64,000 nucleotides of DNA from positions 14,381 to 78,380 of the IMG/VR virus record IMGVR_UViG_3300033821_000019; one strand, given 5' to 3'. Of the stretch, positions 7,948-63,516 are shown piece by piece. Position numbers and translations under genes: made by a program. Every line of letters starts with the position of its first letter. The first letter of the stretch is position 1. Under the pieces are notes generated by a model. It made no database searches. It was not told where the DNA came from and saw nothing but the letters and a program-made list of their open reading frames with translations. This stretch comes from a virus.

Positions 7948-10188
7948 TTATTCCGCTTTCTCTTCTGGTTTGGTGTCTTCAGGTTTATCTTCCTTCTTTT
8001 TTCCCGGCTTTTTCTCTTGGTTTGTTTCTTCTAATATCTTGTCAACTACTTTTTCTATATCTTCATCCGTTGCATCTTCACCAAGTTCCTTCGTAATAGT
8101 TTCGGCTGCGTCTTCTGCTTGACTCTCTAAGCCATTCTTGGCATCTTCTTGCTCTTTATCAACTTCTTCTTGTTTTGTGTTTAATACCTTATCAACTGCC
8201 TTGCCAATATCTTCGTCAGTAGCATTTTCATCCAAACCTTCACTAATGCTTTGTGCCACTTCTTCAACTTGTTTTGGCTCCACTTCAGAGCTATCTGGTA
8301 GCTTAGTTTCCTCAGTTGCTGACGCTGCTGCCGGTTGTTCTGGTGCAACTTCCGCTGGTGCTTCTTCTGCCGGTGCTTGTTCATCAGAAGCACCTTGCCC
8401 TAAATCAAAGCCTCCACCACCGTCTCCACCGCCTTCTGCACCGCCTTCTCCTTCTGGTGGTTGCGCCATATTAAGATGTAGATATTTGGCAACTCTCGGT
8501 AAGATGTCAGTCTTTTCTACTAATCCACGACCAACTTCAACATTCACTTCTTCCAATACACGATTAAATGTAGCGTCCTTGACAGTGAACAAATCATTGT
8601 AAATGCGTTCGTGAATTTCGTCCGTATTGAGATTGAACAACTCATAGATAATGTCAATCGGCATCGAACCCTTCTGATACAACTGGAAGAGGCTATCAAA
8701 TACTTCTTGATTATCACGAATGGACAATCTATTAAAGCCAAGCTTCGGATAGAAGTAGGTCTTGATTCCAAACTCGTCCGTGTCATACCAGCCATGTGCT
8801 TCGGCTACTGGTCTGAACAATGCCTTTTCCACATAGTTTTGCAGGATTTCTCTGGTTAACAAGAATACTGTGTTCAAGATTTCAACGGTGATTTTGTTTC
8901 CAGTATAGGTGCCTTCGCCTGTCAGCAATTCTCTGGTAACACCCAATCCAGCAAATACATGGTTTTCAATCATTTCATACTCGGCTTGCAAATCAAGCAA
9001 TCTCTGGTCTGCTCCAACTTGCTGCCAATCCCAATCGTAGTTGGTGATAATGGCGAAATCAGGGTCTAAATATGACAAGTCGAACTGCAATCTCAAATCG
9101 CCCAACTGTTCATCCGTAAGACCCGGTGCAGAAATTTTGTTCTTTGGTGTCATATTGCGTGTGGCTAGACCAAGCTGCGTATACCGGAAATTTTCTTTCA
9201 TCAACATTGGAACAAGTACACGTTCCAAAACACTTGCGCCCAAATCCAAATAAGGAGAGCGTCTGCGTGCCAAATGATGAACGAAAGAACCCGTGGAAGG
9301 GTCAGAATCCATCACAATACAGCCTTCTTCACGAATCATATTGACTATTTCTTCTGGTACTGATTTGATAATCTGCCTGTGCAAATCACTCATCATTTCG
9401 TCGGGAGCGTTCTTTGTAGCTTCAATGAGCGTCATCAATCTTTGCGGACGGTATTCCACCCTAGCATTTTCAGAGAATGGATATTGGAAAATACTGACTT
9501 CTTCTGGCGGCAGCATTACAACCCTATCCCACATTTTCAACTTAGGATTCCACTCATGGAACAAATAACAATTTCCTATCATGTTATATTCAAAAAGAAT
9601 AGCCTGCAATGTTTGAAATAAATTTAGCTTATCACACATACCAGTGAAAAAGCCATGTATTTTCTTCTTCAGTTCTTTGGGTTTGCCTTCCATTTTTGGC
9701 ATGTTCAAAGAAAGCTTTGACATTGGCAAGTCAGACAAAAGTTCCAATGCTCTACCGCAATAAGCATCTGTTCTTTGCCAATATCTGTACCATTCATACT
9801 TCTCTTTAAGCGTAACAGGCCAATACAGGATTCCACCATTTTGCTCATTCATCATAATGAAGTATGGTGGAATATCTCTCAAACCGCCAACTTGATTCAA
9901 GCCTTGGGCATATGATGATTGATAGGTAGAAAGAGTGCTTGTGCCTATAAGGGAATTTTCAATAGGCAAACTATCCATCATCATACCGGCAGTGCGTGTG
10001 CCTGCTCCACGACCAGCACGACCAAGCATGGCTACCTTGTTGCGTTCCATTTGTGAAACGATAGTTGCCTTCACCGGGTCAACATGGCGAGTAGTAACAC
10101 CGATATTTTTGACCCCACCCTTGAAAGAACCTTGTGGCACATTCGGGGAAGGATTATCTATAGGTGTAGTCTTTCTTGTTCGTGGCAT
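7948..10188 (-). CDS. Phage portal protein with acidic C-terminal extension
   Basis: 746 aa near terL; helical portal-like core (EYNMIGNCYLF, GASVLERVL, VFAGLGVTRELLTG). Confidence 0.7.
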   Translation of the reverse strand: MPRTRKTTPIDNPSPNVPQGSFKGGVKNIGVTTRHVDPVKATIVSQMERNKVAMLGRAGRGAGTRTAGMMMDSLPIENSLIGTSTLSTYQSSYAQGLNQVGGLRDIPPYFIMMNEQNGGILYWPVTLKEKYEWYRYWQRTDAYCGRALELLSDLPMSKLSLNMPKMEGKPKELKKKIHGFFTGMCDKLNLFQTLQAILFEYNMIGNCYLFHEWNPKLKMWDRVVMLPPEEVSIFQYPFSENARVEYRPQRLMTLIEATKNAPDEMMSDLHRQIIKSVPEEIVNMIREEGCIVMDSDPSTGSFVHHLARRRSPYLDLGASVLERVLVPMLMKENFRYTQLGLATRNMTPKNKISAPGLTDEQLGDLRLQFDLSYLDPDFAIITNYDWDWQQVGADQRLLDLQAEYEMIENHVFAGLGVTRELLTGEGTYTGNKITVEILNTVFLLTREILQNYVEKALFRPVAEAHGWYDTDEFGIKTYFYPKLGFNRLSIRDNQEVFDSLFQLYQKGSMPIDIIYELFNLNTDEIHERIYNDLFTVKDATFNRVLEEVNVEVGRGLVEKTDILPRVAKYLHLNMAQPPEGEGGAEGGGDGGGGFDLGQGASDEQAPAEEAPAEVAPEQPAAASATEETKLPDSSEVEPKQVEEVAQSISEGLDENATDEDIGKAVDKVLNTKQEEVDKEQEDAKNGLESQAEDAAETITKELGEDATDEDIEKVVDKILEETNQEKKPGKKKEDKPEDTKPEEKAE

Positions 10189-26372: not shown

Positions 26373-26735
26373 TTAATCTTCTTTCACTTTGGCTGCATAT
26401 CGGCAACGGTCAATCACCCGTTGTGTTCTTTCTAGCAATCTCTTTTCTTCCTCTTTCATGCGCTTTTCTTCTTCTAACATTGTCTTAACTTCAGCGCCAC
26501 AATTAGTGCTTGTAGTCAATGCATTAGAACATTTCTGTGCCAACGCCATCAATTGATTGTTGCGCTTTTCTAACAAGTCAGTCAAGTCTTTGATTTGTCG
26601 TTCGTGTTTTTTGTTGATGTGCCAATAGAAGGCTACCAACAAAACGATGAGGATAACACACATACCCCAAGGACCATATTTCGCCAACATTTCTGCAACA
26701 GTCATAGCACCTTGGGCGGCTGTCTGAGGATTCAT
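26373..26735 (-). CDS. Single-TM + coiled-coil protein, holin-like (BhlA/UviB architecture)
   Basis: LAKYGPWGMCVILIVLLVAFYW then charged coiled coil. Confidence 0.5.
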   Translation of the reverse strand: MNPQTAAQGAMTVAEMLAKYGPWGMCVILIVLLVAFYWHINKKHERQIKDLTDLLEKRNNQLMALAQKCSNALTTSTNCGAEVKTMLEEEKRMKEEEKRLLERTQRVIDRCRYAAKVKED

Positions 26736-29047
26736 ACTTTGCGCTCCCTTCTTTTTTTCAACCCGCTATAAATATGCACCATCAAATCTACCAAATCATA
26801 TGGTTTCTTCGGGTAGTAAACATCGGCGATAGGCACCTTCCAAATTTTGTTAGTCAAAACGATTTTTACCGCATCAAATGAATCACTTACTTCTTTAGTA
26901 AACTCACCGTCCATAAAATTACTTCTAGCATCTGCAATAACTACTGCGAATGGGTCTTTGATATGTTCAGTAATGGCCTCTTGAATAGAACCTGAGATAA
27001 ATACTTTATATCCTTCGCCAGTAATCGCTTCCCAAAGAAGTTTTCCCGTATCAAGAGCACCACCTAACAATAGAATACGCTCCCCGTTGCCTTTTTCATA
27101 GTCGGTGTTGACATAACCTGTCTGTGATTGGTCTATGTACTTTGGCAAATATAAAGAAAATGTAGTACCTTTATTCACCTCAGTATCTACCTTGATTTCG
27201 CCTTTGTGCTGACCTACTATTATAGCATGACAAACAGATAAGCCTAAACCCGTTCCTTTCAGATTAGCCTGCCAAGAATTTTTCTCTGCGAAATTGCCTT
27301 TGGTGGAAAAGAAAGGCATGAATATTTTTGACAAGTTATCTTTAGCTATGCCACATCCAACGTCTGCTATTTTGAGGATAATCTTGTCCTCATAGAGAAT
27401 ATCATTACCTTCGGGTGGTTCTTCAATTGTAATAGTAATCTGCTTATTTTGAGATTTTGTCATCGCGTGTTGAGCATTGATAATCATGTTCATTAAAACG
27501 TGTGCTATGCCTTTCGGCTGCACATATATTTTTGCCGTTGTGTTCTCTACAATATCTACTTTTACATTCTCTTTGCCCAAATCAATATTCAGCAGTTCAA
27601 CGACTCCTTGAATCAATGCTTTTGGCTGGACTGCTTTCATACTACCTTTATTTGAAGCCGTACTAGTGAAAGCCAACAAATCGTTTGTGATACTTGCTCC
27701 TTGAGAAAGAGCAGATTTGACAATATCTAATGATTTGCGAACCTTATCTGGCACCGTCTCGCGATAAATCAAATCCACATGACCCTTAATCACTGCATTA
27801 ATGTTGTTGAATTCGTGAGCAATGCCGCTTGCCATCAAACCTACAGCCGCCAATCGTTCTGAACGTAGCAACTTTTCCTGATGTTGGTATTCTTCGCTCA
27901 CGTCTCTAAACACCATAACAACACCTATCATATCTCCGTATTCATCTATGATAGGTGAAGCATTGTGTTTGATAGGTACTTCTTTACCACTTGAAGTCAC
28001 ATAGAGCGTGTTGTTACGCGGAGCTATCAAAGCGCCCGTGTTGAGTACCATTTCAACAGGATTAGGTACTTCTTTCTTAGTAAACTGGTGAATAAATTTG
28101 ATGAAAATGTTAAGAGGTTTGCCTATCATTTCAAATTCTTTATAGCCAAGTATACTTTCAGCAGCAGCATTAACGCCTATTATCTGACCACTATTGTCTG
28201 TTGAAATAACACCATCACCTATTGAATGCAGCGTGGTAGAAAGCAGCTTCCGATTATCATGTAAGGCTTTTTCAGCTTTCTTGCGTTCTGCAATATCATG
28301 GAATACTACCTCAAAGACCATATTGCCATTGACGCGCTCAAACGATGTGGCGGCAGTTTCAACGTCAATAAGTTCTCCGGTATAAGTAAGAAACTGGCTT
28401 TCAACAAGAGGCACTTCGTACCCGCGTTCTTTTTTCATTTCTTCCATGCGTTGAAGTTCTTGTGCTCTAAATTTTGGATGAACAAAATCCAGATACTTCC
28501 TGCCTAGTAAATCCTCTCTAGTACAAGCCCTTAGCATTCTTACGGCAGCGTTATTCGCAAATTCAATATTGCCGTTCTCATGCAAAATAGTAGCGAAAGG
28601 TGAAACCTCTATCAACCTTTTATACCTTTGTTTTGTTTCCTCAATTTCCAATTCTTGTTTCTTGCGTTGGGTTATGTCCAACATTGCACCAACTATACCT
28701 ATTTTTTTGCCAGCTTTAGTAGTTAAGACTGATTTTTGGTAGATGATGTTTTTAACTTGTCCGTCTGATGTTACCATCTCTTTTTCATACTGCGTTTGAA
28801 AATCAGTAGATTCAAGGAGATTGTCATCTATCTGTTTATGAAAATAGGCGGTTTTCAATGGAGAAGCATCAATAGGACTAGCGCCTATAATGTCTTCTCG
28901 TTTCACATTGCGCAGATTCTCAAAGGCTGTATTGCAACCTACGTAGACACCATTAGCATCGGTGTAATAAACAGCTATTGGAATTGCATCCAATAGTGTT
29001 TGCAAAAAATGGTTCTGCTTTTGTATTGTTTCATCATCGTCGTTCAT
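26732..29047 (-). CDS. Cytoplasmic PAS x3 histidine kinase with degenerate C-terminal receiver
   Basis: three PAS/PAC repeats; H-box GIAHEFNN, N-box NMIINA, DVGCGI, FMPFFSTK, GTGLGL. Confidence 0.92.
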   Translation of the reverse strand: MNDDDETIQKQNHFLQTLLDAIPIAVYYTDANGVYVGCNTAFENLRNVKREDIIGASPIDASPLKTAYFHKQIDDNLLESTDFQTQYEKEMVTSDGQVKNIIYQKSVLTTKAGKKIGIVGAMLDITQRKKQELEIEETKQRYKRLIEVSPFATILHENGNIEFANNAAVRMLRACTREDLLGRKYLDFVHPKFRAQELQRMEEMKKERGYEVPLVESQFLTYTGELIDVETAATSFERVNGNMVFEVVFHDIAERKKAEKALHDNRKLLSTTLHSIGDGVISTDNSGQIIGVNAAAESILGYKEFEMIGKPLNIFIKFIHQFTKKEVPNPVEMVLNTGALIAPRNNTLYVTSSGKEVPIKHNASPIIDEYGDMIGVVMVFRDVSEEYQHQEKLLRSERLAAVGLMASGIAHEFNNINAVIKGHVDLIYRETVPDKVRKSLDIVKSALSQGASITNDLLAFTSTASNKGSMKAVQPKALIQGVVELLNIDLGKENVKVDIVENTTAKIYVQPKGIAHVLMNMIINAQHAMTKSQNKQITITIEEPPEGNDILYEDKIILKIADVGCGIAKDNLSKIFMPFFSTKGNFAEKNSWQANLKGTGLGLSVCHAIIVGQHKGEIKVDTEVNKGTTFSLYLPKYIDQSQTGYVNTDYEKGNGERILLLGGALDTGKLLWEAITGEGYKVFISGSIQEAITEHIKDPFAVVIADARSNFMDGEFTKEVSDSFDAVKIVLTNKIWKVPIADVYYPKKPYDLVDLMVHIYSGLKKRRERKV

Positions 29048-32333: not shown

Positions 32334-34136
32334 TTACCACTTAGACCGAATCTGGTCAATCGTTGGAATAGGTGCCTTCTCTTCCTTCTTGACGACACTT
32401 TCCGTCTCCAAAAGCATACTGAAAATCTTCTCAGAGAATCCACCAACCAAATTCACCTTCTTTGTTGCCTCATTGACAGGCGTATCACCATAACCATGCA
32501 AGTTCACAGAATGCAGCCAACAATTCGGATGCTTCTGTTTGAACTTCTGCCATTCGCCATTCAACGAACCGTCAAACCCGCCGTAGCCGTCATTCCAACA
32601 CTGCATGTCGCTCAGAATGATAACACGGTCTGGATTGACATTATTTTTCGCCATCCACTGCACACAGCGATGTGCGTTGGTTGAACAGCCATTGGTATCC
32701 GCCTTCTCCAATTTCTTAGAGATGTCAATAATGGTCGTGTTCTTTGTGTAGTGAACTTGTGCCACATCAGTACCGAAAGCGCACAAGAGAGCACTACCTT
32801 CAGAACGCTTTGCAATCATTCCAGCCAACACATTCGCAGCTTTCAGACACGTAATCTGGCTCTTGTCTGAAACCGGCGAAGTCATGGAACCGGAATTGTC
32901 GGCAAAAACAGCCGTCATTCCCGGCATTTCTGGAACATTCTGACAAGCCAAATCAATGGCATTTTCAATTGCTTCCAAAAGCTTCTGCTTGTGGCGCGGA
33001 TTGGCCTTATCTTCCTTTTTTGGCTCTTCGTCGTAACTATAGCCATAAGGATTTGGCTGTCCTTCAACAGCGTCATAAGCAGCCACGAAGCGGAATGGAA
33101 GCTGACGGCTCTTCTTAACTTCTTCCGCGTCAGACAGCATGGCATAGACGCTTTCAATCGTTGCATCTGAAACATTAGCCGATGCCACATTGCGAAGGTT
33201 ACGCAACATAGCCATATAGCCAAGAAGCTTTTCGGCAATCAGGTATTCCCAAACTGCCCGCTTGTTTTCACCGCTCTGGCCAAACTGAGACAAAACGACT
33301 TCCCAATTGGCCATTGACTGTGTGACCAATTCCCTAGCCTTATCGTCAAAAATCTTGCACTGCTTCAGGTCTTCACGTGCCGCAACGATTGGCAAAGCTG
33401 CCCTGTCAACTGTGCCGTGAGTCATGTACGTGCGGAGAGGCATCGGCAAAGGATAATCCTTCTTGCGATAAATCCAATGCAGAACATCCTTCCATTTCGG
33501 GAATTCGGAACTGTTGTACTTCAACAATCCACGCTCACCGAAATTATGAAGTGCATCAGCTAGACCACGGCTCAAACAATTCTTTAAGCACTTTGGGCCG
33601 AAAAAGAAACGATGCAGCATCAAACACGTCTTGATTTCATCAGGACGGATTGCAACCTTTGGCATGTACTGACGGACAAACTGCTGTCCCTTTGGATGGA
33701 TAGATGCCACAACCATAAGAACTTGCGGTGTCAAACGGATGTTCATATCATTGCGCAACCAAGCTGCAATGCTGAACAAATCCTTCGGGTTTGGGCCATT
33801 CAAAATACTGATAGCTGCCGCAAGAATTTCTTGGGACACACTATCCAACTCAGGACAATCAACAAATTTCTTAATCTTTTCGCCTGCCATTTCAATGCGG
33901 GACACAAAATCTTCCGCATCCTTCCTGATGACGTTAGGATTTGGCTTCCAGACGTTATCATTGTAATACTTCGGCTCAGCGAAGAAAGCTCCCGCCGTCA
34001 TAGTAATGAGCTTTACAGCAGGATTTTTGATTTCCCACGCAACACCGCCAGCACGGTTCACGCTGGCTCCCTTATCTTGGTTTTGGATGGAAGTAGAAAC
34101 CGACTTGGCCTTCATTAATTTCTTCATCGTGCTCAT
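32334..34136 (-). CDS. rsr: Ro60-related TROVE + vWA RNA-binding protein
   Basis: NRAGG N-terminus, LGYMAMLRNLRN, SRQLPFRF, FADNSGSM MIDAS, IILSDMQ, GFSEKIF. Confidence 0.92.
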   Translation of the reverse strand: MSTMKKLMKAKSVSTSIQNQDKGASVNRAGGVAWEIKNPAVKLITMTAGAFFAEPKYYNDNVWKPNPNVIRKDAEDFVSRIEMAGEKIKKFVDCPELDSVSQEILAAAISILNGPNPKDLFSIAAWLRNDMNIRLTPQVLMVVASIHPKGQQFVRQYMPKVAIRPDEIKTCLMLHRFFFGPKCLKNCLSRGLADALHNFGERGLLKYNSSEFPKWKDVLHWIYRKKDYPLPMPLRTYMTHGTVDRAALPIVAAREDLKQCKIFDDKARELVTQSMANWEVVLSQFGQSGENKRAVWEYLIAEKLLGYMAMLRNLRNVASANVSDATIESVYAMLSDAEEVKKSRQLPFRFVAAYDAVEGQPNPYGYSYDEEPKKEDKANPRHKQKLLEAIENAIDLACQNVPEMPGMTAVFADNSGSMTSPVSDKSQITCLKAANVLAGMIAKRSEGSALLCAFGTDVAQVHYTKNTTIIDISKKLEKADTNGCSTNAHRCVQWMAKNNVNPDRVIILSDMQCWNDGYGGFDGSLNGEWQKFKQKHPNCWLHSVNLHGYGDTPVNEATKKVNLVGGFSEKIFSMLLETESVVKKEEKAPIPTIDQIRSKW

Positions 34137-34159
34137 ATTACATCTCCTTGTTGCGAAGT

Positions 34160-34270
34160 GTGCCTTAACAAGAATCCATCAATCCCAAAAACTAAGACAG
34201 GCTGGTTTCGTTTATGATAGAAGTAAGCCGGTCTTGAAGTGGATTGATTTCAATTCTTGCCATTAAGCAC
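34160..34270 (-). ncRNA. Y-RNA-like long hairpin 2 (candidate Ro60 partner)
   Basis: nested stems gtgc/ttaa/caagaat/atcaatcc/aagac/ggct; core ggcttacttc...gaaaccagcc shared with hairpin 1. Confidence 0.6.
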
Positions 34271-34275
34271 CAATC

Positions 34276-34346
34276 TGCTAATACCGAAAAGTTTGGCTTG
34301 GCTGGTTTCATTCAGAGAAGTAAGCCATGCCAGAAGCGTATCAGCA
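34276..34346 (-). ncRNA. Y-RNA-like hairpin 1 (candidate Ro60 partner)
   Basis: tgctgatac/gtattagca outer stem, same ggcttacttc...gaaaccagcc core; TTGAAA-N16-TATTAT promoter just upstream. Confidence 0.6.
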
Positions 34347-34406
34347 TTATGATAATACACGCAAGAATGAACTTTTCAAGAAGAAAATTGAAAAATTTCG
34401 CTTTTT

Positions 34407-44630: not shown

Positions 44631-45184
44631 GCCTTGTTTTCTCTAAATTTAACTACTGCTTCACAAAAAGTAATCAATTCTTCATCATTGATACCATTTC
44701 TCGCTAAATTTGCTAGATAAGAAATAAACCTCACATTCCCCTGCAAGTAGCCTTTCTTCGGGTCTATTCTATCCAAACTGGCTCTAAAAATTCTACTAGA
44801 ATTATTTTTCCAACCAGCGGTAGTATTTGGCAATAATAACTGCAAACCCGATATACAACAAATTCCTTTTTGTTTTTCCCAAAGTTCCTTAATATATTCA
44901 AGAGTTAAATCTGTCGTTCCTTTTAGCAAACTTCTTTCTTTAGAAGTTTTCAAAAAATACCTAAATGGAGTAAATTCATCAGACTTATCGTATCCCTTCA
45001 ACAGATTTTTTCCATCATAAACTCGCGTTCCTATGTTTTGACTTTTGCCAGAACAGGAACGACTACAGAAATGTCTTCTTTTAAGAAGTTCACTTCTGCT
45101 GTATTCTATTGAACTTTTTTCAAATATTTTGCGACAACATGCACATTCTACTTTTACTTTCTTTCCTTTAATAGCCATAAGCAC
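44627..45184 (-). CDS. Free-standing HNH-type endonuclease downstream of tmRNA
   Basis: CACC...FCSRSC; QKGICCISG...ASLDRIDPKKGYLQGNVRF. Confidence 0.8.
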   Translation of the reverse strand: MLMAIKGKKVKVECACCRKIFEKSSIEYSRSELLKRRHFCSRSCSGKSQNIGTRVYDGKNLLKGYDKSDEFTPFRYFLKTSKERSLLKGTTDLTLEYIKELWEKQKGICCISGLQLLLPNTTAGWKNNSSRIFRASLDRIDPKKGYLQGNVRFISYLANLARNGINDEELITFCEAVVKFRENKA

Positions 45185-45236
45185 CTCCTTTATGCTTATG
45201 GCTATATAAAAGAATTATGAATGCGACGGGAATTGC

Positions 45237-45919
45237 TGGTGGAGGTGGCGGGACATCTGTATCTTTGCTTTCACAAAGTATGGACTATTCCTTCATCTGG
45301 TTTTTATCCAGAGAGTGGCGTTTATGATTTCAATTCATGCTAATCCTTAAAAGGATTGCTTAAATTTATCCATCCTAGTGACGCCATGATTTTTCAATTT
45401 TAGGCGTTCTATGAGTCTCTAGACCATCGCCATGATTTCTCAATGGTTTTGGTACGGTGTTTTCATGGGTTATTCCTAACCTTTAGAATTCGCCGTTTGA
45501 GCCACTTTTTTGCGCAAGAATCACTTCTTGCCTCGACAATTCCTTATCGAACCCGCGTCCTGAGATACTCCAAAGCAAGCGTCTACACGTTTAGTTGCAG
45601 ATTTGGGACTTCGGTTTGAAACTGGCTCTACAACGGCCATTCTCAATCCTATTCTGATTGTCTCACTTTTCAATTCCTCAGATGGTGGAACTGAAAGCCA
45701 GTCTGATTGGGTACGCAGTTATAGGCATCCAGACGTAATCCCTATAACCACGTCGCTGGTGTTTAGGCAGCGATTTCAGCTACCTTGCGGAAGCTGAAGT
45801 CAACGTGTGTTACGTTGGCAGTTAGTTATTTTCCCCGGTGGATTTTACGTGGCCAACCTGAGAACTCCACGACATGCAGCTACGCCTCTCGGCAATCCAG
45901 TCGAAACCTGTTCACCCCC
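45237..45919 (-). ncRNA. ssrA: tmRNA (exon 1 45919-45546, exon 2 45253-45237; 391 nt spliced); tag ANVTHVDFSFRKVAEIAA at 45819-45763
   Basis: 5' GGGGGTGAACAGGTTTCGAC; spliced 3' GACGCGGGTTCGAT|TCCCGCCACCTCCACCA; tag ORF ends in AA-stop. Confidence 0.95.
45254..45545 (-). mobile_element. ORF-less group I intron (292 nt) in the tmRNA T-loop
   Basis: exon ends in U, intron ends in G; R-like CTAGAGACT and S-like AAGGAATAGTCC (P7 GACT/AGTC); removal restores a perfect T arm. Confidence 0.88.
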
Positions 45920-45981
45920 ATATTCAGCTTCAAAGAACCACTGTCACTTCCTCATTATATCGTCATCTTTGCCAAATTCCA

Positions 45982-46434
45982 CTAATTTTCTTTGGGAAAA
46001 AACTTCAACGGCTTGAGCAAGTTCTTCTCTGGAACACTGTGAAAACCTTCGTATTTATGTTTTTCAAAAAGCTCGATTGGAAGTTTTTCATCTAACTCAT
46101 TAAAATTACCAATGCCATATTTGAACAAAGTTGCATCCACTATTTTATTATCAACGACCACCCACGCATGAAGAAGTTTGTCCAAGATTTCTTCTTTCTC
46201 GTGTTTGCCAGCGAATCCTTGCCAAACAAAATGATAGCTTGCCGACAGATAACCTACCCAATACACCGGCTCTTTGCCACGCTCTTTTTGTGCCCAATAT
46301 TCCTTTCGCGCATTCTCAAAACACCAACGAACTTCGCCTTTGGTAAACTGTTTTTCCATCACAGAAGGCATTGTTTCAGACAAAATACCTTTTGCCAATT
46401 TCAGTAACTCTTTTGCTATCAATAGTTTATACAT
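45982..46434 (-). CDS. Hypothetical protein with IAKELLKLAK tag; C...HAWV transglutaminase-like hint
   Basis: MYKLLIAKELLKLAKGIL; WCFENA...HAWVV...VDAT. Confidence 0.65.
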   Translation of the reverse strand: MYKLLIAKELLKLAKGILSETMPSVMEKQFTKGEVRWCFENARKEYWAQKERGKEPVYWVGYLSASYHFVWQGFAGKHEKEEILDKLLHAWVVVDNKIVDATLFKYGIGNFNELDEKLPIELFEKHKYEGFHSVPEKNLLKPLKFFPKEN

Positions 46435-46514
46435 AAATGGCTTTCTCACCCTCTCCACCACTACAGAAAATCAAAAAATTGTTATAGAAATCAGTGAAAG
46501 TGACGATACAGTAA

Positions 46515-47056
46515 GTGTAGCAATTTGAAGGACGTGGATACCGAACCACAAATAAAAAAGCGGAAAGAATGTGATTGACTTTTTAGGATAAAGGAGATAG
46601 GTTTATGAACTGACCGTAATCCCCGCCTGTGCAAGACCACTTCTCGCTGGCGTGCGGTGGTTCAAGGGGAAAATGAGAGCCAGAGCGCGGGTAATGTGAA
46701 ACCGCGCAATGATGGAGTCTAAAAGCACAGAAAGCGTCAAGCGGACAAAAACTAGAGACTAACTGAAAGGTAAGGTGGGCCATGTAGCGCGAACCGAGTA
46801 GTGAACGCCAACTTAGATACTAATTTTGAGACTTGATGCAACACTTTGCTTAGACACACAATACATGTGGCTAAAATTAGAAGGAAAGACGAACATGAAC
46901 TGGCCTTAAGATGATTGTAAAAACACTCTTGCAAAATAATTTAGATTGAGAAAAAATTTAGCCGTTTAACGCCACAGTTTGACTACGGGACTACTGGCTA
47001 GGCATTCTACCGTAGGAAAAAAGCCTTCCGAGCATAAAGCTTTGGAAGGCTTTTTT
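46515..47056 (+). ncRNA. Candidate large structured non-coding RNA (~540 nt)
   Basis: no plus-strand ORF; own TGACGATACA promoter (46501) and strong terminator; multiple stems. Confidence 0.55.
47017..47056 (+). terminator. Intrinsic (bidirectional-looking) terminator
   Basis: aaaaaagccttccgagc-ataaa-gctttggaaggctttttt. Confidence 0.85.
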
Positions 47057-47099
47057 ATGCCTTGTATCTGTATATAATAAGTAGAGGAGACTTAAACCT

Positions 47100-47567
47100 A
47101 TGCCCATGCACATCATTGAAGGTAATCTACTTGAAGCCGAAGAGAGATTTATAGCGCACCAATGTAATTGTATCTCTATCGGCTCTGCTGGTCTGGCAAA
47201 ATCCCTATTCAGAAAATTCCCTTACGCCAATGTTTACTGTACCAGAAAAAAGCGTGGCGAAGATAAAATGGGAACCATCACTGTTTGCGGCAATGGTTCT
47301 GGCAAGCGTTATGTGATTAACATGTTTGCTCAATACAATCCGGGTGGTCCAGACAAAGGCAGAGACAGCCCCAAAGGACGGGAATTCTACTTTGCCCTTT
47401 GTTTACGCCAGATTGTATCATATAATGCCATCACGCCAATTGTGAGCATAGCCTTCCCATTTAAAATAGGATGCGGTCTGGCAGGAGGTAGCTGGAACAA
47501 TTATTTTAAGATGTTAAACGATTTTTCTGATAAAAATGGCTTTGAAGTGACGATATACAAACTGTGA
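47100..47567 (+). CDS. Macrodomain protein (ADP-ribose binding/hydrolase)
   Basis: IEGNLL, IAHQCNC, GLA, VINMFAQ, FPFKIGCGLAGGSW. Confidence 0.9.
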   Translation: MPMHIIEGNLLEAEERFIAHQCNCISIGSAGLAKSLFRKFPYANVYCTRKKRGEDKMGTITVCGNGSGKRYVINMFAQYNPGGPDKGRDSPKGREFYFALCLRQIVSYNAITPIVSIAFPFKIGCGLAGGSWNNYFKMLNDFSDKNGFEVTIYKL

Positions 47568-47591
47568 GAGCTTTTTAAGAAAGGGAAAGAA

Positions 47592-48104
47592 ATGGATTTT
47601 TTGGTACTGTCAAGATATGAGGTAGAGAGCGGAGAGCACATTCCACAAGGAGTGCCACACGTCGTTGTGTCTATTGGCAGTCCATATGACAAACAAGGCA
47701 GATTTGGCCTTCTTCTTAAATACCCTTATCCTCAAGCTCGCATACCGCCCAATCCCAACTGCAAAGGCATTCTCCGGCTACAATTTTTGGATGCCACTGG
47801 AAGAGAATTTGGCCACATGTTTGGGATAGGTTATGAGGAAGGCGAACTTTTCAACGAGCAAATGGCACGGCAGGTTCTAAAGTTCATCCGTGGGCACAAG
47901 GATAAAGTAAATCTCATTGTCTGTCATTGTGAGGCTGGCGTAAGCAGAAGCGCGGCAACGGCTGCTGCTCTGTCAAAATGTTTCGGCCAGAGCGATATGG
48001 AATTCTATAAGGGCCGATTCCATCCGAATCCCTTGGTTTACCGCACTATTTTGAATGTTGCGCAGAAAATGGATATCTTCACTAAATTTGCTGTGACTGC
48101 CTGA
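47592..48104 (+). CDS. Protein-tyrosine/dual-specificity phosphatase-like protein
   Basis: HCEAGVSRS CX5R motif. Confidence 0.85.
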   Translation: MDFLVLSRYEVESGEHIPQGVPHVVVSIGSPYDKQGRFGLLLKYPYPQARIPPNPNCKGILRLQFLDATGREFGHMFGIGYEEGELFNEQMARQVLKFIRGHKDKVNLIVCHCEAGVSRSAATAAALSKCFGQSDMEFYKGRFHPNPLVYRTILNVAQKMDIFTKFAVTA

Positions 48105-63271: not shown

Positions 63272-63516
63272 TAGAAAACCTATTTTTTGCTATGCGTTTG
63301 CAAAATTGACACATGCCACATTTCGGGCAAACCTTATCGAAATTGGTATGTTGGTATCCGCAAGAAAAACATGTGATTGAAACTGCTGGCGCGGCTCCAT
63401 TAGCCATACCGCCACAACCATTGTAAGGACAGTAAGGTTTTCGCTTCGCTCCCATAACATCTAAGTATACAAAGAAACCAGCTAGATTTCACAAAGAAAC
63501 TTGGGGCAGTAGTATA

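Follow-up and report, generated by a model that had tools for sequence, protein, structure and literature searches.

The stable RNAs C and D of bacteriophage T4 are structured molecules of ~120-140 nt, processed from tRNA precursors and encoded in a tRNA cluster. Antitoxin RNAs of the ToxI type consist of tandem direct repeats of ~34-36 nt, followed by a terminator and then by the toxin gene. The PR'-6S RNA-tR' leader of phage lambda is 194 nt long and is subject to antitermination by Q. Toxic or regulatory minigenes, including lambda bar, are described as having 2-8 codons in a passage of PMC2490762 that cites Hernandez-Sanchez 1998. Y RNAs (YrlA), the partners of Ro60 proteins, are 80-130 nt long, share their strand with the Ro60 gene, from which they are at most 4 kb away, and possess a tRNA-like module (PMC4201824).

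Here we describe an ORF-free tract from a phage, located in a 64,000-nt stretch of DNA (hereafter the window) that corresponds to bases 14381-78380 of a 78-kb virus record from IMG/VR, estimated by CheckV to be ~32% complete. The tract and its neighbors are arranged as follows:

45237-45919, minus strand: tmRNA with an inserted intron, probably of group I, in the T-loop; its promoter motif (45965-45956) is of the same class as that of the tract
45982-46461, minus strand: gene of a 159-aa protein with no recognised family, divergent from the tract (the database form has 150 aa and starts at 46434)
46501-46510, plus strand: phage promoter motif TGACGATACA, a perfect match to the consensus, in back-to-back arrangement with the region 5' of the divergent 159-aa gene
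46511-47016, plus strand: ORF-free, purine-rich body of the putative transcript (60% A+G, 18% C)
46611-46810, plus strand: GC-rich island (53.5% GC vs 40.6 +/- 3.8% in genes), including the hairpin GCGCGG/CCGCGC at 46685-46707
47017-47056, both strands: strong bidirectional intrinsic terminator (A6, hairpin, T6) with a perfect 13-nt inverted repeat
47069-47078, plus strand: TGTATATAAT, a sigma-70-type -10 element; the Macro gene starts 21 nt further downstream
47100-47567, plus strand: Macro-domain gene, downstream of the tract
47592-48104, plus strand: DSP-like phosphatase gene following the Macro gene, with a TGACGATATA motif of its own at 47548

The tract resembles the ROOL (RF03087) and GOLLD (RF02032) RNAs in being several hundred nt long, ORF-free and carried by a phage, with a tRNA-like gene in the region; however, it exhibits no covariance-model match, no excess folding energy, a purine-rich composition and no homologs, and on these grounds its membership in either family was rejected. 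With the PR'-6S-tR' region of lambda it shares the succession of a promoter, an ORF-free leader and a strong intrinsic terminator just 5' of the next genes, but it is 545 nt rather than 194 nt long, the phage showed no Q-like gene, and the genes 3' of the terminator have apparent promoters of their own. Like the RNAs C and D of T4, it would be a phage-encoded RNA with no assigned function alongside tRNA-type genes; the difference is that the tract forms an independent unit and displays no fold signal. A type III toxin-antitoxin RNA was also considered and rejected, as there is no tandem array but one 29-nt pair separated by 290 nt, and the downstream gene encodes a Macro-domain protein and not ToxN. 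The parallel with minigenes is an analogy only: as in lambda bar, a putative phage transcript that is otherwise untranslated carries a strong SD sequence ahead of an ORF of 2 codons (and another of 4), but the codons are AAC, UGG and CCU vs AUA, and the module is present in two diverged copies.

The phage and its accessory region

The DNA runs that contain the phage record are peat metagenomes. The portal protein exhibits 64% identity to that of the 253-kb IMG/VR phage G001 (the closest phage found), vs 34% for Tunturiibacter phage Tunturi_5 and 25% for Bacillus phage G; these identities mark the record as a part of a large soil phage, whose host may belong to Acidobacteriota. Synteny with G001 is confined to 1-34 kb of the window. 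The whole accessory island, in which the tract is located, is missing from G001, which shows that this phage group can do without the element. Among the proteins common to the record and G001, a 286-aa protein (record bases 8079-8939; -6302 to -5442 in the window numbering) is 91% identical to its counterpart vs 27-66% for the remaining ones, which points to either a recent exchange or unusual constraint on this gene. Another gene with a counterpart in G001 encodes a 771-aa sensor histidine kinase with the PAS-PAS-HisKA-HATPase architecture (26732-29047, minus strand).

The minus strand carries nearly all genes, and the tract lies within a small plus-strand island. The record is ~93% coding, and a census of the entire 78-kb record (ORFs of at least 70 aa, gaps of at least 200 nt) revealed three ORF-free gaps, namely the tmRNA, the tract, and 63272-63516. 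The last of these (245 nt) shows no Rfam match and has a TATAAT at its end, 22 nt before a plus-strand start. The 159-aa protein encoded on the other side of the tract has one relative in a collection of 5.8 billion proteins (P0002, 78% identical, on a 31.8-kb contig) and none in IMG/VR. The protein has a weak structural likeness to cysteine proteases of the transglutaminase-like and lasso-peptide McjB types (TM 0.42-0.47). Its AlphaFold model is poor (pLDDT 35).

The tmRNA was identified by cmscan with a score of 99.6 bits (45544-45911, minus strand). Its T-loop is split, with GGGTTCGAT ending at 45545 and TCCCGCCACCTCCACCA resuming ~290 nt later, and the insert, which is probably a group I intron, gives a weak match to the Intron_gpI model (18 bits, E 0.05, 45262-45555). 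RNA contigs from three peat metatranscriptomes (Logan) cover only the tmRNA (45560-45910) within 45000-47800, and such contigs cannot show absence. They match the tmRNA with 99-100% identity, which indicates that the phage tmRNA, or an identical one, is expressed; none of them reaches the splice junction.

The phage also encodes a Ro60/TROVE protein (32334-34136, minus strand), which should have an RNA partner, and therefore we considered the tract as a Y RNA. This candidate was rejected: with 545 nt the tract is too long, it is separated from the Ro60 gene by 12.4 kb and lies on the opposite strand, and it contains no tRNA-like element. Immediately upstream of the Ro60 gene there is an ORF-free stretch of 270 nt (34137-34406, minus strand) with two similar hairpins (GGCTTACTTCT...GAAACCAGCC) and no Rfam match. 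The hairpin motif partly recurs 5' of the Ro60 gene of G001, where a tRNA-like element is also present, and we regard these hairpins as candidates for Y-like RNAs that could partner the phage Ro60 protein.

Signals and coding status of the tract

The initial annotation reported a long plus-strand tract without an ORF, bracketed by a promoter and a strong terminator and situated next to the tmRNA. The promoter at 46501 is an exact copy of an over-represented motif of the phage: TGACGATACA has 15 matches with at most one mismatch vs 3.0 expected, a number that was reached by no shuffle. By our own count, 12 of these sites (of 15) are followed within ~60 nt by an SD sequence and a start codon in the right orientation, and one further site is found 36 nt upstream of the 5' end of the tmRNA. 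This placement indicates that TGACGATACA is a transcription signal, which already drives one RNA gene. The distance from the copy in the tract to the first SD-preceded start is 95 nt, vs 20-56 nt at real genes. All sites are restricted to the accessory half (25724-61988), often with TTGATAAA ~14 nt upstream, and precede the tmRNA, a radical-SAM cluster, the phosphatase and many small genes, but no structural gene at 1-24 kb. TGACGATACA probably represents an early or middle promoter class. The motif is not recognisable in G001.

At the other end, the perfect inverted repeat of the terminator is flanked by an A-tract on one side and a T-tract on the other. The terminator core has a folding energy of -15.6 kcal/mol, the terminator is predicted to function in both directions, and in a census of the record it is among about seven strong intergenic terminators. 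The Macro gene starts 44 nt further downstream on the same strand. No TGACGATACA-type motif is found between the terminator and this gene. TGTATATAAT, which is a perfect TATAAT with TG upstream, could be the own promoter of the Macro gene; in the phage, a TATAAT is found within 60 nt upstream of the start in 9 of 62 cases, ~3 times the estimated chance expectation.

Between these signals the tract has no plausible ORF. In the plus strand of 46462-47099 no ORF exceeds 32 aa, and the three plus frames of the tract contain 13, 15 and 23 stops; in none of them are stops sparser than at random. A reassignment of stop codons was rejected, since all three kinds of stop occur in each plus frame and hence no recoding opens the tract. 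The coding-potential test found no consistent coding frame in the tract. A decayed homing-endonuclease gene or a paralog was likewise rejected, as the six frames revealed no similarity to genes of the record or of G001. The dense stops and the lack of a coding frame and of a paralog, together with an intact promoter, RBS and terminator, argue against a recently broken gene. The purine content of the plus strand (0.60 vs 0.56 +/- 0.04 for the sense strands of genes) is a compositional asymmetry that makes this strand resemble a sense strand, and a low C content (here 0.18) is unfavourable for the loading of Rho on untranslated RNA. Two further candidate roles were dismissed: a sponge for a Csr-type regulator, as the ~11 GGA triplets in the tract (our own count) equal the expectation, and pairing with the tmRNA or the rest of the record, where complementarity does not exceed chance.

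The presence of an ORF-free unit bounded by a promoter and a terminator is thereby confirmed. The adjacency to the tmRNA is not, as the 159-aa gene intervenes and the tract lies ~600 nt away, and what the initial annotation had observed is partly confirmed on the whole.

Folding, RNA families and homologs

The same annotation interpreted the tract as a large structured RNA, either of the ROOL/GOLLD class or new, on the basis of a number of stems, and noted that signatures of RNase P and tRNA are lacking. All the listed stems exist, but they are no more than expected by chance: the 506-nt body without the terminator folds with z +0.70 relative to shuffled sequence, and for the GC-rich core (46611-46810) z is +1.47, with 188 of 200 shuffles folding at least as well. 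The whole region including the terminator reaches z -1.57 because of the terminator. Windows of 150 nt inside the tract range from -1.2 to +1.9 on both strands, whereas control windows in the tmRNA reach -5.3 and the window with the terminator -3.3. With 60% purine and 18% C in the plus strand, the possibilities for Watson-Crick helices are limited. The folding energy of the tract, equal to or worse than that of shuffled controls, speaks against a structured RNA, and stems found in a single purine-rich sequence are no proof of structure.

Comparisons to known RNA families point in the same direction. At gathering thresholds, cmscan against Rfam reported only the tmRNA in the entire window. A permissive search of 46300-47200 with 4227 Rfam models (E<=10) yielded best E-values of 0.5-0.9, all on the terminator hairpin, which we regard as noise. 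The ROOL model (RF03087, 574 positions, gathering score 99.1 bits) found no match with E<=10 in the whole record, and the control genomes were likewise matchless; the GOLLD model (RF02032, 416 positions, gathering score 150 bits) gave only matches of 10.5 and 5.9 bits elsewhere in the record and none in the tract. The lack of RNase P and tRNA signatures is borne out by the covariance models and by ARAGORN, which found no tRNA-like gene in the tract, and no T-loop-like match was detected there. The assignment to ROOL/GOLLD has to be abandoned, and the interpretation offered by the initial annotation is, taken as a whole, partly supported.

No homolog of the tract was found in GenBank phages (blastn), in the whole genome of G001 (blastn, nhmmer --max and tblastn), in IMG/VR (pattern scans) or in GTDB genomes. 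Scans of JGI metagenomes by peptide and by 19-mer found nothing, and 401 Acidobacteriota genomes yielded only A-rich chance matches. Relatives of the Macro gene (L003-L005) are preceded by different genes and by no similar DNA. A 19-mer match in a Pyrinomonadaceae MAG (L037) was judged to be due to chance, as nothing else aligns and ~4 random matches are expected by our estimate; it corresponds to a 25-nt hairpin shared by the two sequences, in which the 11-nt loop is unchanged and two stem pairs are swapped, and it lies within an array of TGTGAAA repeats. This intergenic array (L037, 6440-6700, minus strand) comprises ~11 copies with a spacing of ~20 nt, 5' of a 220-aa ORF, and may represent binding sites of a regulator. 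A contig from one DNA run that covers 46365-47132 is identical to the window and so reveals no natural variation.

Mini-ORF modules and possible readings

The body of the tract contains a pair of related short modules:

46591-46619, plus strand: mini-ORF module 1, AAGGAG, 8 nt, ATG AAC TGA CCG TAA (two codons, a stop, one codon and an in-frame TAA)
46881-46909, plus strand: mini-ORF module 2, the second copy of the repeat pair, AAGGA, 9 nt, ATG AAC TGG CCT TAA (M-N-W-P-stop)

The repeat unit is 29 nt long, and module 2 lies 290 nt after module 1. The tract contains 11 ATGs, of which only two are preceded by an SD sequence; both of these open the near-identical mini-ORFs and share 10 of the 12 following bases. 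Such a pair of ATGs arises in 0.2% of dinucleotide shuffles (p about 0.002) and, when SD sequences are required, in 0 of 4000, statistics that are partly post hoc, the test having been designed after the repeat had been seen. The mini-ORF pair is non-random. AAGGAG followed by ATG arises in 2.8% of shuffles, and AAGGAGAT, found in module 1, belongs to the 8-mers most typical of RBSs in the phage. When the halves of the tract were aligned locally without an anchor, the result was not significant, and no further copies of the module were found in the record, its kin or IMG/VR.

Between the two modules the SD sequence, the AUG, the codons and the TAA are kept, while the spacer has diverged; the Pro codon is synonymous (CCG/CCU), and TGA in one copy corresponds to TGG in the other. 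As TAA is kept in register in both copies, the short frame (M-N-W-P-stop) looks ancestral and not like the stump of a broken gene. Both modules have the hallmarks of minigenes, i.e. a canonical SD at functional spacing and an ORF of 2-8 codons. An ATG-initiated ORF of 12 codons (46911-46949) begins 1 nt past the stop of module 2.

A promoter-to-terminator unit that lacks an ORF makes a non-coding transcript of ~545 nt plausible, and we tentatively favour, as possible though short of probable, the reading that the tract encodes a stand-alone, weakly structured non-coding or minigene RNA of this length. Transcription would start a few bases past the motif at 46501-46510, the same one that drives the tmRNA, proceed through ~545 nt that are rich in purines, poor in C, fold weakly and lack a protein-coding frame, and end at the 47017-47056 hairpin, 44 nt ahead of the Macro gene with its seemingly own -10 element. 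Such an orphan non-coding RNA would act via its linear sequence and not via an ornate fold, and its most likely working parts would be the two conserved modules with SD sequences and mini-ORFs of 2 and 4 codons (AUG AAC UGA and AUG AAC UGG CCU UAA). With two ribosome-binding modules it would be expected to interact with ribosomes, in the manner of a minigene or of a regulatory uORF. Transcription of the tract as a single unit, translation of its mini-ORFs and any function at all are our inferences. The more specific proposal of a new phage RNA that acts on host translation via tandem M-N-stop and M-N-W-P-stop minigenes, expressed from the promoter class of the tmRNA, appears quite improbable at present; we speculate that an RNA of this kind could sequester ribosomes or particular tRNAs, or sense the status of translation during takeover.

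Another reading takes the tract for a functionless spacer, left behind by a duplication or by a moron that was lost or has decayed; its signals would be residual or fortuitous, and any RNA made from it would have no role. The lack of homologs and of a fold signal, as well as the absence of the region from the closest phage, agree with it, as does the layout of a promoter, an RBS and an ATG with a terminator 400 nt later, which is like a small gene whose frame is gone; the GC-rich island is moreover compositionally foreign. However, the exact promoter consensus, the canonical RBS and the perfect terminator stem have persisted despite random stops, whose density in all frames implies that the decay would be old; TAA is in register in both mini-ORF copies, and the record is otherwise tightly packed. 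We consider a remnant rather unlikely. Still less likely, in our view, is a regulatory leader of the Macro gene (and the phosphatase gene), in which transcripts from 46501 would normally stop at 47056 and would extend into 47100 and beyond only through a phage antiterminator or a change of the RNA by ribosomes on the mini-ORFs. Such a layout would be akin to lambda PR'-6S RNA-tR' or to attenuation by a leader peptide. Here the position of the terminator so close to the Macro start on the same strand, with no TGACGATACA-type motif intervening, has to be set against the perfect -10 element (TGTATATAAT) 21 nt before that start and the separate motif at 47548, owing to which the phosphatase gene does not need read-through. 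The ends of mini-ORF 2 and of the adjoining 12-codon ORF lie 68-108 nt upstream of the terminator, as might be expected of a leader, but inspection revealed no convincing antiterminator pairing with the 5' arm of the terminator (5 bp at best), no Q-, N- or LoaP-like gene was noticed among the scanned proteins of the ~32% complete record, and 540 nt is long for such a leader.

A large ornate structured RNA, be it a divergent relative of ROOL/GOLLD or a representative of a new class, is highly improbable: its size (~545 nt), its carriage by a phage in the same accessory region as the tmRNA, a local GC peak resembling that of the tmRNA and the presence of individual hairpins would fit, but none of the 4227 Rfam models matches at E<=10 apart from the terminator noise, the direct ROOL and GOLLD searches were negative, z is positive for both the body and the core (+0.70 and +1.47), and the strand is 60% purine. 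We assign an equally slim chance to the possibility that the tract encodes micro-proteins, e.g. from the 12-codon ORF, whose start 1 nt past the stop of mini-ORF 2 is reminiscent of translational coupling, or from ORFs of 27 to 32 aa; the longer plus-strand ORFs all lack an SD sequence, and a 66-aa ORF of the minus strand has no RBS, lies on the pyrimidine-rich strand, is absent from the protein collection and has no homolog.

The chief value of the analysis is negative, in that the label of a "ROOL/GOLLD-like ornate RNA" is inapplicable to this locus. The favoured stand-alone RNA, if real, would enlarge, by a further orphan non-coding transcript, the accessory repertoire of giant soil phages equipped with a tmRNA and a Ro60 homolog, a group with an almost unexplored RNA biology, and the paired mini-ORFs, if real, would provide a concrete and testable handle on it.
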